IMG/VR virus record: IMGVR_UViG_2660238600_000005
Length of the DNA: 4,809 nt
DNA from: a virus
Lineage: Duplodnaviria > Heunggongvirae > Uroviricota > Caudoviricetes
Strand: one strand, 5' to 3'
Of the stretch, positions 1 to 3,996 are shown piece by piece (within the stretch, counting starts at the first letter, position 1; the number at the start of each line of letters is the position of its first letter). Below the pieces are notes generated by a model, which saw only the letters and a list, made by a program, of their open reading frames with translations, searched no databases and was not told the DNA's origin. The position numbers and the translations under genes are program-made.

Positions 1-711
1 TTACGCCTTCTTTATATCCTCCATAATTCCAGAGTGGGACATATTTGGGACATTATCACCAAAAATGTCGTCTATTTTCCTCGCATGCTCTGTCAAATGA
101 TTAGGCGCAAGGTGAGCATACCTACGAACCATTTCTATGGACTCCCATCCGCCCATTTCCTGAAGCACTGATAATGGGACGCCTGACTGAATCAGCCAGC
201 TTGCCCAGGTGTGTCTGAGGTCATGGAAACGGAAATCTTCAATTCCTGCACGACGACAAGCTGATAGCCATGATGTCTTGCTGTCGATGCGCATCTTCCT
301 GACTGCAGGCGTTGATGTTCCATCTGCTCGCTTAGCCGCCTTGGTATGTACAAACACCCATTTGTGATGCTTGCCTATTTGATCACGCAACACTTTACAG
401 GCGGTATCGTTCAGCGCCACACCAATGGCGCGGTTTGATTTGCTCTCTTCTGGATTCACCCAGGCAACTCGTCGCTGCATGTCGATTTGTTGCCATTCCA
501 GATTTATGATGTTCGACTTTCTCAGACCAGTTGCCAGCGCAAACTTGACGACAGATTTCAGTGGTTCGGGGCACTCATCAATAAGGCGTTTTGCTTCCTC
601 CTTTTCCAGCCATCTGACTCGCTTGTTTCTGACCGCTGGTATCTTGATGACAGGCGCTTTTTCCAGCCACTTCCAGTCGCGTTCTGCAGCACGGAGAATG
701 GCCTTTATCAT
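1..711 (-). CDS. int: Tyrosine recombinase / phage integrase, catalytic domain only; N-terminal arm-binding and core-binding domains absent, so possibly a truncated remnant
   Basis: 236-aa ORF with ATG at 711-709 and TAA at 3-1. Tyrosine-recombinase active-site pattern is present: Arg in [12 protein letters not shown]-x-x-R in [15 protein letters not shown], and the Tyr in VRRYAHL. Reading the same frame upstream of the Met gives only 24 codons before a stop at 786-784, and no integrase-like N-terminus is seen in another minus frame. Confidence 0.85.
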
Positions 712-778: not shown

Positions 779-1096
779 ATGGTTTACGAGTATTGCCGGA
801 AGCGTGGTCTGTATCCGGATGCAGAGTCTTATCCGTGGAAATCAAACGCGCACTACTGGCTGGTTACCAACCTGTATCAGAACATGCGGGCCAATGCGTT
901 GACTGACGCGGAATTACGGCGCAAGGCTGCCGATGAACTGTCCTGTATGACCGCGCGAATTAACCGTGGTGAGGCGATACCTGAACCAGTAAAACAACTT
1001 CCTGTCATGGGCGGTAGACCTCTAAATCGTGCACAGGCTCTGGCGAAGATCGCAGAAATCAAAGCTAAGTTCGGACTGAAAGGAGCAAGTGTATGA
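779..1096 (+). CDS. Hypothetical phage protein, 105 aa; possibly the 3' remnant of a larger gene
   Basis: ORF from ATG 779 to TGA 1094-1096. No convincing Shine-Dalgarno upstream. The frame stays open back to a stop at 734-736 with no alternative start codon. Its stop overlaps the next gene's start (ATGA at 1093-1096). No family recognised. Confidence 0.45.
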
Positions 1097-1386: not shown

Positions 1387-1724
1387 GCATAACTTATGGA
1401 TTATATGGAAAACTGGTAATTATGCTCTTTTCTTATGAAAATAAAGAGAAGTTTTCGCTGGCGTTTTATTTCTTCTGTTTTTTCTTGCGGGTTATTCTGA
1501 TTTGTTTTGATTTGATTTTTTCTGACAAAAGTAGGGAAAAAATATGTCGCAAGTACTTTCTGTCTTTACCTCCTAAATTACATTCTCTATCAAATGTTGC
1601 CATAGTTATGACCCCAGTTTTATATAGTGTTTCAGCAATTTTTCTGTAGTTTTTTTCTCGCAAAATTGAAGAGTTTTTCTTTGCTGTATTTTCAAGGCTA
1701 TCTCCTTGTGGTTTAAGACTATTT

Positions 1725-1778
1725 GGGCCAAAAAACGTTGTGGATACTGCTGCACTTGTTGTCCGTTTTTTTTGGCCC
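1725..1778. repeat. Imperfect ~54-bp palindrome (GGGCC-A6-CG / CG-T8-GGCCC arms around a 26-nt loop) in the AT-rich spacer between convergent gene blocks; candidate bidirectional terminator or protein-binding site
   Basis: Left arm GGGCCAAAAAACG (1725-1737) is complementary to right arm CGTTTTTTTTGGCCC (1764-1778) with two extra T. It lies 86 bp beyond the stop of the leftward Mnt-like gene and downstream of the rightward genes ending at 1386. Confidence 0.55.
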
Positions 1779-1863
1779 ATTTGGATAGTACTTGGGAGAG
1801 GCATGATTTTAATACGCATATAAATAACTCCTCTATCAATTGGATTTTGAGAAAATATTAACA

Positions 1864-2181
1864 TTAATCATGATTAAGGAGTAATTTTAAATCTTCCAAT
1901 AAAATTTGTTTAAACTCTTGTGTTCTATGATCGATATACAACGCAAGTTTGCTTGCATTATCTTCCAGGTCACGTATCTCTCTGTCACCTCGAATAAACC
2001 CAACTAAATTTAAACGTTTAGATAGTTCAGAACTTCCTTCTATGGCATCTTGGAGTATTTGAATGATTTCTGAATTCATTGAGCGCCCGTTTCGTTTGGC
2101 TCGTTCAGCTATAGTTTCACGCATCCCATCAGGGAAACGGAGGTTAAACTTATCGTAGTCTTTTACTTGTTTGTCAGCCAT
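1864..2181 (-). CDS. Mnt/Arc-family ribbon-helix-helix transcriptional repressor, 105 aa, with a C-terminal extension that could be a coiled-coil oligomerisation region
   Basis: N-terminus MADKQVKDYDKFNLRFPDGMRETIAERAKRNGRSMNSEIIQILQDAI matches the Arc/Mnt signature as I recall it (FNLRxP ... NGRSxNSE ... Q). Start chosen at ATG 2181-2179, preceded by a G-run; the track ORF extends to 2211 but the extra 10 residues have no ribosome-binding site and do not fit the family N-terminus. Stop TAA at 1866-1864. Confidence 0.8.
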   Translation of the reverse strand: MADKQVKDYDKFNLRFPDGMRETIAERAKRNGRSMNSEIIQILQDAIEGSSELSKRLNLVGFIRGDREIRDLEDNASKLALYIDHRTQEFKQILLEDLKLLLNHD

Positions 2182-2280
2182 TGGACCCCCCAAAAAAATG
2201 AATGGTGCCATATTGCCACATCAATTCAATGGTGGCATTATGGCCTCATGGTGTCATTGTGGCCTCATGAGGTTATGTCA
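2182..2280. promoter_or_regulatory. Divergent promoter/operator region between the Mnt-like and Arc-like genes
   Basis: Candidate rightward promoter: -35 TTGCCA (2213-2218), 17-nt spacer, -10 CATTAT (2236-2241). Direct repeats TGGCCTCATG at 2241-2250 and 2260-2269 (19-bp register). Perfect 10-bp palindrome CCTCATGAGG at 2263-2272 overlapping the ribosome-binding site of the rightward gene. Further repeats AATGGTG(C/G)CAT at 2200-2210 and 2228-2238. Confidence 0.5.
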
Positions 2281-2439
2281 ATGGAAAAGAAAGAGGTAAA
2301 AATTACCCTTCGCTATCCGCAAAAAGTGAAGGATGAATTCAAGCGAATTGCTCAGGAGGAAGGGATGTCTGAGAACGCAGCTATTGTTCAGGCGCTTGTA
2401 TGGGCATTGAAATTTAGAACACGGATACATGCTCGCTAG
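2281..2439 (+). CDS. Small ribbon-helix-helix (Arc/CopG-like) DNA-binding protein, 52 aa
   Basis: MEKKEVKITLRYPQKVKDEFKRIAQEEGMSENAAIVQALVWAL fits a beta-strand / helix / helix RHH pattern. Start ATG 2281 has GAGG (2269-2272) at 8-nt spacing. The 5' extension of the track ORF (from 2167) translates the operator region and is not accepted. Confidence 0.6.
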   Translation: MEKKEVKITLRYPQKVKDEFKRIAQEEGMSENAAIVQALVWALKFRTRIHAR

Positions 2440-2446
2440 AAACAGC

Positions 2447-2478
2447 GAAGCCCCACTGGCGGCAACCTTAGGGGCTTC
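2447..2478 (-). terminator. Hairpin in the arc-like/ant-like intergenic region; possible terminator of a leftward antisense RNA, by analogy with P22 sar
   Basis: GAAGCCCC (2447-2454) pairs with GGGGCTTC (2471-2478) around a 16-nt loop. On the minus strand the stem is followed by GCTGTTTCT (T-rich); on the plus strand there is no T-run. Confidence 0.3.
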
Positions 2479-2509
2479 TATCGAAAATAACCGCGAAGGA
2501 AATATCGAC

Positions 2510-3178
2510 ATGAGTATTGTAGCAACATCAGATCTGAACTTCCAAGGTGAAGCACTAGTGCCAGTGGCAAATATTGCCGGAATATGGCTAACTTCATCCA
2601 ACCTAGCAAGAGCACTGAAGTATTCGAATAGTCGCGCAGTCACGATGATTTACAACAAATATGCTGACGAATTTTCCAGTAGTATGACTAGAGTGCTTGA
2701 AGTCAGTACCTTAGAGAATGATGTCGAGGTACTTGATCTGAGTACCTCGAAAAGTACTCGAAACTTGAAGAAGAAAGTACGCGTTTTCTCTCTCCGCGGA
2801 GCCCATTTGATCGCCATGTTCGCCCGCACTCCTGTAGCCAAAGAGTTCCGCCGTTGGGTTCTGGATATTCTCGATCGAGAAGTTCAACAATCCCCAATCA
2901 TAAAACAATTCACTGATAACGAACTTTGCACACTTGCTTGGTTGTGGCGAGCTGGGGATGCGATGTTAACCGCCTGCCAGAACGTTACTCCTCTTCTTCA
3001 GGTTGCGGAGCATCGTGAAGCTGGTCGCTTCACTTCTATCGAGCAAGAATATCCCCAGATACTCAATAAGGCACAGGCAATCCTTGCCAGAGAAACGGCA
3101 CATGTAAAATTCCGGCCGTGGCAGGATGATAAGTGGAGTCGAGTTTTGCCGCATTTACGTTCGGATCGATTACAGTAG
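2510..3178 (+). CDS. Bro-N domain protein, antirepressor-like (Ant/Roi-type), 222 aa
   Basis: N-terminal region (FQGEALVPVANIAGIWLTSSNLARALKYSNSRAVTMIYNKYADEF ... VFSLRGAHLIAMFARTPVAKEFRRWVLDIL) matches the Bro-N pattern as I recall it, including the ...AK.FRRWV... motif. Start ATG 2510 has GAAGGA at about 9-nt spacing. The track ORF start at 2429 overlaps the upstream gene and lacks a ribosome-binding site. Stop TAG at 3176-3178. The C-terminal ~95 aa are unassigned. Confidence 0.8.
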   Translation: MSIVATSDLNFQGEALVPVANIAGIWLTSSNLARALKYSNSRAVTMIYNKYADEFSSSMTRVLEVSTLENDVEVLDLSTSKSTRNLKKKVRVFSLRGAHLIAMFARTPVAKEFRRWVLDILDREVQQSPIIKQFTDNELCTLAWLWRAGDAMLTACQNVTPLLQVAEHREAGRFTSIEQEYPQILNKAQAILARETAHVKFRPWQDDKWSRVLPHLRSDRLQ

Positions 3179-3241
3179 ATTCCAATTAACAATGAGAAAC
3201 ACATAGCCACCCCGTGGTATTGAAACCATATAATGTTGGAT

Positions 3242-3270
3242 TTGAAAACAGATCTTTTTCCATGTATTAA
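3242..3270 (+). promoter_or_regulatory. Candidate sigma70 promoter facing the 118-aa gene and nin region
   Basis: -35 TTGAAA (3242-3247), 17-nt spacer, -10 TATTAA (3265-3270) with TG immediately upstream. The spacer contains an imperfect palindrome centred on AGATCT. Confidence 0.3.
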
Positions 3271-3438
3271 TAACTACATCCCCGCGAGTGATTCAAAAAG
3301 GAGGGCCCAATTTTGTCCGAGTTTTTGTATTCCCCCGCATGCCGCTGCGGAGCACTACATCTGAGTGTCTGACTAGGGGATAAAATTAGACTGGATAGTG
3401 AGAAGAAAGTGGCGTGCTAGGCTGTGCCGAGTGCTACC

Positions 3439-3562
3439 AGTACACCCTGGGGGTGTGCAGCTTTCGCCGAGACTGTAGTGGGTATCGGTTAATGCACGAA
3501 AAACCGAGAGGTCAGACAACCAATTTGCCGTAGGATTGTTTCCGGTGCGATACCGGTGTACT
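3439..3562 (+). other. Nested long-range complementarity in an ORF-free region; candidate structured RNA/leader or DNA site of unknown function
   Basis: AGTACACC (3439-3446) is complementary to GGTGTACT (3555-3562), and GGTATCG (3481-3487) to CGATACC (3548-3554). The two 3' partners are contiguous, giving a 15-bp interrupted helix enclosing internal segments. No ORF of 60 aa or more on either strand between 3211 and 3639. Confidence 0.25.
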
Positions 3563-3639
3563 AACTGAAAGCAATGCGAAAAAGCATAAACTCGGTCCTT
3601 CAGTCGCCCTACACACTATTTACTAAGAAGGGCTAAAGC

Positions 3640-3996
3640 ATGGATACAATTATCACATGGATGGGAGATCGTCTGTTGGGGTGGATAACAAACAAATCCG
3701 ATCTGCGGCAGAGGGCAATCACTGGATTAACTCCTGCGATTTGTTCAACAATTTTATATACTGAAAAATTAAAACGTGGTGAGCCTAATAACCCAAACGA
3801 AGAAGAAAAACTTTATAGGCTTTGGTATGAAGCGTCTTCCCAAGTCGTAGACTTTGATCGAGAGCTGGCTAAAAGATGTTTAGATAAATCAGAATATTGG
3901 CTTCATTCTGAATTATATAGCCCTGAGAAAGTTGAAGAGCTAAACATTTCTTTGGTTGGTATGAAGGCAACGCTTGAAGGAATAAAGCACAATTAA
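3640..3996 (+). CDS. Hypothetical protein, 118 aa; orphan accessory (moron-like) gene
   Basis: ATG 3640 has GAAGG (3628-3632) at 7-nt spacing. The ORF is visibly more AT-rich than its flanks. No recognisable motif. Confidence 0.6.
   Translation: MDTIITWMGDRLLGWITNKSDLRQRAITGLTPAICSTILYTEKLKRGEPNNPNEEEKLYRLWYEASSQVVDFDRELAKRCLDKSEYWLHSELYSPEKVEELNISLVGMKATLEGIKHN

Follow-up and report, generated by a model that had tools for sequence, protein, structure and literature searches.

A conserved, structured RNA element, probably a non-coding RNA gene, in the nin region of lambdoid prophages of Enterobacterales

The IMG/VR virus record IMGVR_UViG_2660238600_000005 (Caudoviricetes) includes a stretch of 4,809 nucleotides (nt), hereafter the window, which is the end of the nin region of a defective lambdoid prophage of Escherichia coli. 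Between the gene Ant and an open reading frame (ORF) of 118 amino acids (aa), it holds on the plus strand, at 3278-3606, a conserved structured RNA core of about 330 nt with two domains. Comparison of relatives shows a conserved two-domain fold of about 18 predicted helices on that strand, a kissing loop of 6 base pairs (bp) that ties the two domains together, and an RNA family that, judged from its changing neighbours, moves between phages independently of the flanking genes. On balance, the element is probably an autonomous gene for a structured non-coding RNA, which in the window would double as the 5' leader of the 118-aa ORF. Autonomy is suggested because the promoter hexamers are conserved, terminators follow the element, the flanking genes vary, and the RNA is kept where the accessory gene is broken or where there is none. 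The element is an accessory module of lambdoid phages and prophages of Enterobacterales, situated between the replication/ren genes and ninB.

The conserved two-domain fold

The element was followed through about 100 loci, obtained from pattern scans of viral and metagenome contigs and by looking up contigs that encode homologues of the downstream protein; loci are cited by number (such as L117) where they have to be told apart. Its length is 339-341 nt in all aligned variants, at identities of 71-100%, and the collection comprises 33 distinct variants of this length together with more divergent members (L098, L103 and L116-118; 71-89% identity). Relatives at 71-82% identity are nearly free of insertions and deletions (indels) across the element. 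A preliminary description of the window had presented 3180-3640 as gene-free, and the interval indeed contains no ORF of 50 aa or more, only ORFs of 19-48 aa, none of which is kept among relatives except for the first 12 codons of a TTG mini-ORF discussed below.

The same description proposed a multi-helix structured RNA, an idea that is borne out on the plus strand, where the final model of 98 pairs in 18 helices has 95.9% of its cells paired in 28 sequences. An RNAalifold consensus of 22 sequences contained 84 pairs, 13 of them compensatory; this set was 97.7% paired and held 109 cells with double changes, versus 5-17 when the partners were slid. All-against-all column covariation proved too noisy in a sample of few clades and was replaced by a helix-level search with slid controls, which uncovered a 6-bp loop-loop contact (3353-3358/3475-3480) and a long-range helix (3367-3374/3510-3517). 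In the final model 28 pairs show double changes, versus 19.1 +/- 1.8 after shuffling (none of 500 shuffles reached 28) and 4-9 with slid partners, and the cells with double changes number 187, versus 9-28 in slid controls. Because the sample has few clades, the shuffle controls overstate significance and the slid controls are fairer. Canonical pairs make up 96.0% on the plus strand versus 85.2% on the minus strand, and the presence of G-U pairs in 272 cells makes the fold specific to the plus strand. As comparative evidence, these figures argue strongly for a conserved structure, whose predicted parts, all on the plus strand, are as follows.

3276-3383: 5' domain, closed by helix 3276-3283/3376-3383
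3284-3291/3331-3338, 3294-3299/3322-3327 and 3303-3306/3315-3318: long hairpin of the 5' domain
3343-3351/3360-3367: second hairpin of the 5' domain
3353-3358: strand A of the kissing loop (CACUAC), in the loop of hairpin 3343-3367
3368-3374 (UCUGACU) with 3510-3516 (GGUCAGA): long-range helix of 7 bp, a pseudoknot relative to the closing helix of the 5' domain
3389-3605: 3' and central domain, closed by 3389-3394/3600-3605
3405-3410/3460-3465: central helix, with sub-helices 3411-3412/3437-3438, 3415-3416/3432-3433 and 3420-3422/3426-3428
3441-3447/3451-3457 and 3466-3474/3481-3489: hairpins of the central domain
3475-3480: strand B of the kissing loop (GUAGUG), in the loop of hairpin 3466-3474/3481-3489
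3503-3508/3591-3596 and 3526-3528/3571-3573: further helices of the central domain
3542-3546/3552-3556 (GCGAU loop) and 3574-3577/3584-3587: 3' hairpins

The strongest covariation lies in 3389-3605, where 3407:3463 is GC in 15 sequences and AU in 13, and 3415:3433 is AU in 15 and CG in 12. Further covarying pairs are 3416:3432 (CG 15, GC 10, GU 3) and 3546:3552 (AU 18, CG 7, UA 3), and 3473:3482 displays five pair types, the maximum at single hairpin positions. By RNAalifold and pair counts, the pairs of the 5' domain are mostly invariant or show one-sided changes, with less covariation support than those of the central domain.

In the kissing loop, four combinations of hexamers occur among the 28 sequences, all perfectly complementary: CGCAAC/GUUGCG (11 sequences), CACUAC/GUAGUG (7), CACCAC/GUGGUG (4) and CAUCAC/GUGAUG (4). 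By position, 3354:3479 is AU in 16 and GC in 11, 3355:3478 is CG in 23 and UA in 4, and 3356:3477 is AU in 11, CG in 10 and UA in 7. The RNA of L103 (Obesumbacterium proteus, 2631-2971) is a mosaic, with a 5' part of the L053 type, kissing loops of the E. coli type and a 3' hairpin of the Klebsiella type, which indicates recombination inside the RNA gene; since it joins the 5' part of one type to the loops of another, it also argues against simple co-inheritance of the covarying parts. The 7-bp long-range helix probably ties the two domains as well. It is 99.5% paired and invariant, save that four sequences of the L098 clade have U-A in place of C-G, a difference that, as a single inherited event, is weak evidence.

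Two long-range helices put forward in the preliminary description did not hold up. The complementarities themselves (AGTACACC/GGTGTACT and GGTATCG/CGATACC) are present in the window, but across 22 relatives the pairing of the proposed helices reaches only 72% (79% and 64%, respectively), and both overlap the covariation-supported hairpins 3441-3447/3451-3457, 3466-3474/3481-3489 and 3542-3546/3552-3556; on this comparison they are specific to the window sequence. The Rfam scan and covariation check that the description recommended returned no family match and did find compensatory changes in homologues, though not in the helices originally proposed.

As a side observation, the hairpins 3542-3556 (CCGGU-GCGAU-ACCGG) and 3574-3587 (AUGC-GAAAAA-GCAU) carry purine-rich loops, which we take to resemble the GNRA-like loops of lambdoid boxB-type hairpins; there is no boxA-like sequence close to 3542-3587.

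Boundaries, genomic setting and spread

Conservation begins about 55 nt 5' of the RNA core and follows a fixed order: a box together with TTGAAA, 17 variable bases, a T(T/A)TAAT-like hexamer, 5-6 variable bases and an invariant AUCCCCGCGAG. All relatives retain both hexamers, and divergence is seen in the 17-nt spacer and in the 5-6 nt that follow the -10 hexamer. This pattern reads as a promoter signature, with a start that would lie near A3278 as judged from spacing only. Of the promoter candidate given in the preliminary description, the hexamers (TTGAAA at 3242-3247 and TATTAA at 3265-3270, with a 17-nt spacer) are in place, but a consensus scanner makes no call. The box is conserved among variants with different upstream genes and is possibly a UP element or a regulator-binding site. 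The signals flanking the core, all on the plus strand, are listed below.

3225-3241: conserved box just 5' of the -35 hexamer, CCATATAATGTTGGATT in the window and ACCATATGTTGTATAG in most relatives
3242-3271: promoter-like element, with -35 TTGAAA (3242-3247), a 17-18-nt spacer and -10 TATTAA/ATTAAT (3265-3271)
3607-3639: linker to the 118-aa ORF, with no intrinsic terminator

As a separate observation, L086 (5552-6808) and L067 carry an insertion of about 1.25 kilobases with two IS3-like transposase ORFs between the -35 and -10 hexamers (window position about 3267), and their RNA core is unchanged.

At the other end, conservation breaks off abruptly after CAGUCGCC (3601-3608). A strong hairpin followed by a U-run lies 2-7 nt 3' of the element in many relatives, with folding z-scores of -3.6 to -4.8 in four of them, compared with -0.5 at the same position in the window; neither a scan nor folding found an intrinsic terminator in the window's linker (3607-3639). 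The sequences of these terminators vary, and about 240 nt separate them from the mini-ORF. A custom scan and folding were used for them, as a consensus terminator scanner overlooks them (L087, 1486-1512; L117, 1045-1072) because an upstream A-run lets the stem absorb the T-run. In L045, the 3' end of the RNA is replaced from model position 313 by an element with a 296-aa ORF, whose N-terminus we read as transposase-like.

These features outline how the element may work. Transcription would proceed from its own sigma-70-type promoter (3242-3271), starting near A3278, and in many relatives the RNA would end at its own intrinsic terminator as a discrete transcript of about 365 nt. In the window, where the terminator is missing, the RNA would instead form the 5' part of the transcript of the 118-aa ORF, with which it is presumably co-transcribed. 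Read-through from the RNA promoter, plausibly the only transcription source for the next gene in most loci, would supply transcription to the downstream accessory gene. The folded RNA itself may be the selected product, acting in trans on a partner conserved across hosts and phages; such a partner is suggested by long, near-invariant stretches in the RNA while the neighbouring genes vary. What follows the RNA differs between loci, as shown below.

3640-3996, plus strand: 118-aa ORF of PHROG 12412, function unknown; no terminator between RNA and gene
178/191-aa protein with two transmembrane helices: terminator between
183-aa protein: terminator between
177-aa protein: no terminator between
95-aa protein: no terminator between
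ninB (L117, 698-1700) or a DUF1367 gene (L053, 1823-2900): directly after RNA and terminator, without an accessory gene

The accessory downstream proteins have no match in Pfam, PADLOC, NCBIfam or among Protein Data Bank (PDB) sequences, and their predicted folds are generic helical bundles. The 118-aa protein is predicted by AlphaFold2 to be a four-helix bundle (predicted local distance difference test score 77), and a fold search with it yielded insignificant matches only, including HEPN toxins at E about 0.4. The fold matches of the protein with two transmembrane helices likewise point to a generic four-helix bundle; a SLATT label that UniRef attaches to a 41%-identical homologue was not reproduced. 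An R-x4-H motif in the 183-aa protein and a PIN-like N-terminus in the 177-aa protein are by-eye readings confirmed by no model.

Carriers of the element include prophages of E. coli, Klebsiella, Enterobacter and Obesumbacterium as well as viral and metagenome contigs. It is present, always as a single copy, in 159 of 5426 complete E. coli genomes (2.9%), and RefSeq places no annotation under it in any of the 159; among 50,697 phage records it occurs in four, namely two E. coli and two Klebsiella phage isolates. Many E. coli chromosomes contain DNA identical to the window, as do two E. coli phage isolates. In a Klebsiella phage, 3252-3606 is matched by a block of 78% identity that has other genes on both sides and a terminator after it, and more generally the genes upstream and downstream of the element differ from phage to phage. 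A plasmid collection gave no match, and a three-anchor pattern scan of species-representative genomes gave only a chance match in a Mycobacterium metagenome-assembled genome without BLAST similarity, a scan in which taxonomic breadth is under-sampled.

The remainder of the window is a patchwork of lambdoid genes, as follows.

1-711, minus strand: C-terminal fragment of an integrase
779-1093, plus strand: fragment of replication protein P, C-terminal 105 aa
1093-1386: ORF resembling lambda Ren, without a Pfam match
1390-1900: AT-rich insert 3' of ren, containing a 132-aa ORF (1466-1864, minus strand) without a Pfam match
1864-3178: module resembling P22 immI, within the nin region
1867-2181, minus strand: Mnt-like gene with an Arc domain
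2281-2436: Arc-like gene
2444-2508, minus strand: sar-like antisense RNA in the arc-ant gap (Rfam RF00262; 34 bits, below the gathering score of 43, E = 3.8e-4)
2510-3175: Ant gene with Bro-N and P22_AR_C domains
after Ant: 460-bp gap, 118-aa ORF, ninB and ninE, in this order

Judging by the junction at about 712-778, a deletion seems to have taken out xis through O, and for this reason the prophage is probably a cryptic remnant.

Autonomous RNA gene or regulatory leader

Several observations weigh against an autonomous RNA gene. The -10 hexamer is weak and in most relatives lacks the consensus A at position 2, and the scanner calls no promoter there; the transcription start and the 3' end of the RNA are both deduced from sequence features, and the proposed trans partner is putative. 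The helices of the 5' domain and the long-range helix are nearly invariant and hardly tested by covariation, and covariation is also seen among many unrelated column pairs in this sample of few clades. Folded singly, the sequences have no energy advantage over shuffles (z = -0.3 to -0.5), with z-scores near 0 on both strands, so that the case for structure rests on comparative evidence. Finally, most loci have a same-strand ORF that starts 28-51 nt after the RNA or the terminator, too close for it to have its own promoter, an arrangement that fits a cis-regulatory role too.

Such a role would make the element a cis-acting 5' leader that gates whichever accessory gene follows, through terminator read-through or occlusion of the ribosome-binding site. 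This generalises the main idea of the preliminary description, which had seen in the region a leader or riboregulator of the 118-aa gene, and we give it a modest chance of being correct. Physically, the element is the 5' leader of that gene in the window: all loci with the 118-aa gene after the RNA lack a terminator and place its ATG 28-31 nt after the element (about 30 nt in the window), and a weak GCCCU/AGGGC pairing in the linker could occlude the ribosome-binding site of the ORF. Elsewhere the start codon lies about 25-45 nt after the terminator, with no space for a separate promoter. A regulator dedicated to the 118-aa gene is nonetheless contradicted by what follows this RNA, which is one of at least five unrelated genes or no such gene: the downstream genes (118-aa, 178/191-aa, 183-aa, 177-aa, 95-aa and DUF1367) are mutually unrelated, and two relatives (L117 and L053) have no accessory gene at all, a pattern that also argues against a riboswitch. 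The differing sequences of the terminators leave no possibility of a conserved antiterminator, and at about 330 nt with a pseudoknot the element is far above the size of known leaders of Enterobacteria. The RNA also persists beside a broken ORF, as in 26 loci where the 118-aa ORF is truncated and the RNA is about 98% intact.

The association with particular proteins is correspondingly loose. In Enterobacter and Obesumbacterium the RNA is likewise followed by homologues of the 118-aa protein (69-79% identity), but one at 51% identity occurs without the RNA, as do homologues of the protein with two transmembrane helices at 33-53% identity. Since RNA and downstream genes occur apart, the RNA is not the dedicated partner of any one protein. 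In nin regions without the RNA (L099, 55-656; L108, 2266-3037), homologues of both proteins follow a gene resembling DNA polymerase III theta (HolE/Hot-like), which suggests that the same slot holds alternative upstream modules.

A broader and rather doubtful idea is that the RNA forms the constant part of a modular prophage cassette, in which it, as a folded RNA of ribozyme size, would sense the state of the cell and gate read-through into swappable, possibly toxic accessory genes. The state sensed may be infection, a shut-off of transcription or translation, or a phage factor, possibly sensed with the help of the ribosome-binding-site-like motif and the mini-ORF. If true, the cassette would amount to a system of RNA-gated defence or exclusion, with interchangeable effectors and no dedicated protein partner.

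The more specific possibility of an RNA antitoxin or sensor of a cassette like those of type III toxin-antitoxin or abortive infection, again with interchangeable effectors, is improbable. ToxIN, AvcID and AbiF/RCd22 cassettes consist of a promoter, an RNA, a terminator and a promoterless gene (PMC12373285; PMC10511110), and many relatives share this order and the prophage accessory-gene setting; the site is a region where accessory genes vary between phages, and one downstream protein has two transmembrane helices and the homologue with the SLATT label; the features read by eye in the 183-aa and 177-aa proteins would point the same way. The window, however, has no terminator, the element has no tandem repeats, and the downstream proteins are unrelated to one another and match neither toxin or defence models of Pfam, PADLOC or NCBIfam nor PDB sequences, the one with transmembrane helices having a generic four-helix fold. 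That one RNA should bind five unrelated proteins is unlikely, and the RNA is found without accessory genes just as these are found without it. The preliminary description had already set aside type III toxin-antitoxin, tRNA and retron explanations, and its rejection is upheld: Tandem Repeats Finder (minimum score 30) detects no repeats in 3100-3700, ARAGORN no tRNA or tmRNA in the window, and neither the window ORFs nor the contexts of relatives include a reverse transcriptase.

Also very improbable is a dual-function transcript whose mini-ORF yields a micro-protein, or else a leader peptide whose translation remodels the RNA (attenuation). The sequence elements on which this would depend, all on the plus strand, are these.

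3298-3304: Shine-Dalgarno-like AAGGAGG, partly within stem 3303-3306/3315-3318 and 8 nt 5' of the TTG
3313-3372: TTG mini-ORF of 19 codons, encoding LSEFLYSPACRCGALHLSV

Both were reported in the preliminary description and are present in the window; 26 of 28 variants retain the near-consensus motif and the TTG, and the frame stays open over the first 12 codons in all. Yet across these 12 codons, which are conserved at the nucleotide level, third positions are as invariant as the others, and the remaining half varies, with substitutions that are mostly non-synonymous, a stop at codon 13 in the E. coli L092/L012/L013 type and frameshifts in L070 and L089. GGAGG is retained in the same 26 variants but is replaced by GTTGG in L070 and GGTGG in L098, so that the ribosome-binding site is lost in these two. 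Motif and start codon lie inside a predicted stem-loop, and codon periodicity is absent from the element (variable columns by phase 52/110, 64/109 and 57/110; p = 0.23). The conservation of the mini-ORF thus fits RNA-level constraint better than a conserved peptide. An attenuator of the kind considered in the preliminary description is unlikely, since the window has no terminator, those of relatives differ and are found only some 240 nt further on, and conservation does not extend to the second half of the peptide.

A processive antitermination RNA acting in cis on the RNA polymerase that transcribes it, which would let its own transcripts pass the next terminator, appears comparably remote. 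Lambdoid phages are the group in which such RNAs are known, the put RNAs of HK022, and the order promoter, structured RNA, terminator and gene, with downstream genes lacking promoters of their own, would suit this role. However, put RNAs are cis-acting antitermination RNAs of about 70 nt with two hairpins, and the element, at about 330 nt, shows no resemblance to them that we noticed; moreover, the terminator is missing in the window and in all loci with the 118-aa gene after the RNA.

Hardly credible, lastly, is an element without function as RNA, that is, a site acting at the level of DNA or the decaying remnant of a gene, with similarity that stems from recent horizontal spread: its narrow distribution in lambdoid prophages of Enterobacterales, the few clades and the unremarkable folding energy would agree with it, but near freedom from indels at 71-82% identity, substitutions clustered in compensatory pairs, where one position can show as many as five pair types, a strand-specific fold with G-U pairs, and promoter-like and terminator signals flanking it in the expected order all speak against it.

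Some further candidates were tried and rejected. A protein-coding gene or pseudogene is inconsistent with the lack of codon periodicity and of any ORF shared beyond 12 codons. For an mRNA of a type I toxin-antitoxin system (hok-like), the conserved peptide part SEFLYSPACRC is not hydrophobic, no ORF is conserved past 12 codons and there is no Rfam hok/Sok match. A retron msr-msd is excluded by the lack of a reverse-transcriptase domain in window ORFs or the contexts of relatives. CsrB carries about 18-22 GGA motifs, and the element, by inspection of the alignment, has only three conserved ones (at 3300, 3393 and 3532), which speaks against a CsrB-type protein sponge with many such motifs in hairpin loops.

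Relation to known RNAs and significance

The autonomous RNA gene favoured here would have no counterpart in current catalogues. Rfam 15 gives no match in 3230-3660 at E<=10, and in the whole window at E<=1 only sar (2444-2508); for five relatives at E<=5, nothing falls within the element and two weak matches lie outside it. Literature searches by sequence and by topic yielded no description of it.

Among known RNAs, ROOL and GOLLD come close in general character. They are roughly 500-800 nt in size. The element resembles them as a large, phage-borne non-coding RNA with an intricate, covariation-supported fold, loop-loop contacts and no fixed protein-gene neighbour, but differs in its size of about 330 nt, its Enterobacterales hosts and its place in the lambdoid nin region, and it has no sequence or structure match to them (Rfam, E<=10). 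Both are large, ornate phage-associated RNAs of unknown function (bioRxiv 10.1101/2024.12.08.627333).

The other systems resemble the element mainly in layout. A ToxI-like arrangement, with a terminator and then a gene, is seen in many relatives but not in the window, and the downstream proteins are unrelated and match no toxin model; RNA and genes are separable, in contrast to type III, AbiF/RCd22 and AvcID cassettes. With the put RNAs of HK022 it shares the position of a structured RNA right after a promoter, with terminators downstream, in a lambdoid phage. Small RNAs of E. coli prophages, such as DicF, AgvB, AsxR and the Pas small RNAs (PMC4104026; bioRxiv 10.64898/2026.05.13.724894), are likewise non-coding accessory genes of lambdoid prophages with a promoter and terminator of their own, which the element would also possess. 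Unlike these base-pairing RNAs of roughly 50-150 nt with simple hairpins, however, it is pseudoknotted and conserved in shape rather than in a seed, and it matches no Rfam model of this type.

Since it lacks the defining features of the known families that could be assessed, the element appears from its sequence to be a new class of RNA and an uncatalogued family; the novelty claimed is that of the RNA family. RNAs that combine large size with a complex tertiary fold are uncommon, and few genomes have been studied as thoroughly as those of E. coli and its lambdoid phages, yet the element is unannotated in 159 RefSeq genomes. The four complementary variants of the kissing loop supply ready models for tests by compensatory mutation. 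Within the nin region, the element also sits at a recombination boundary, beside a slot with varying accessory genes, and may thereby aid the mapping of prophage cargo. If fold and transcript were confirmed, it would represent a new RNA class in a genetically tractable host.

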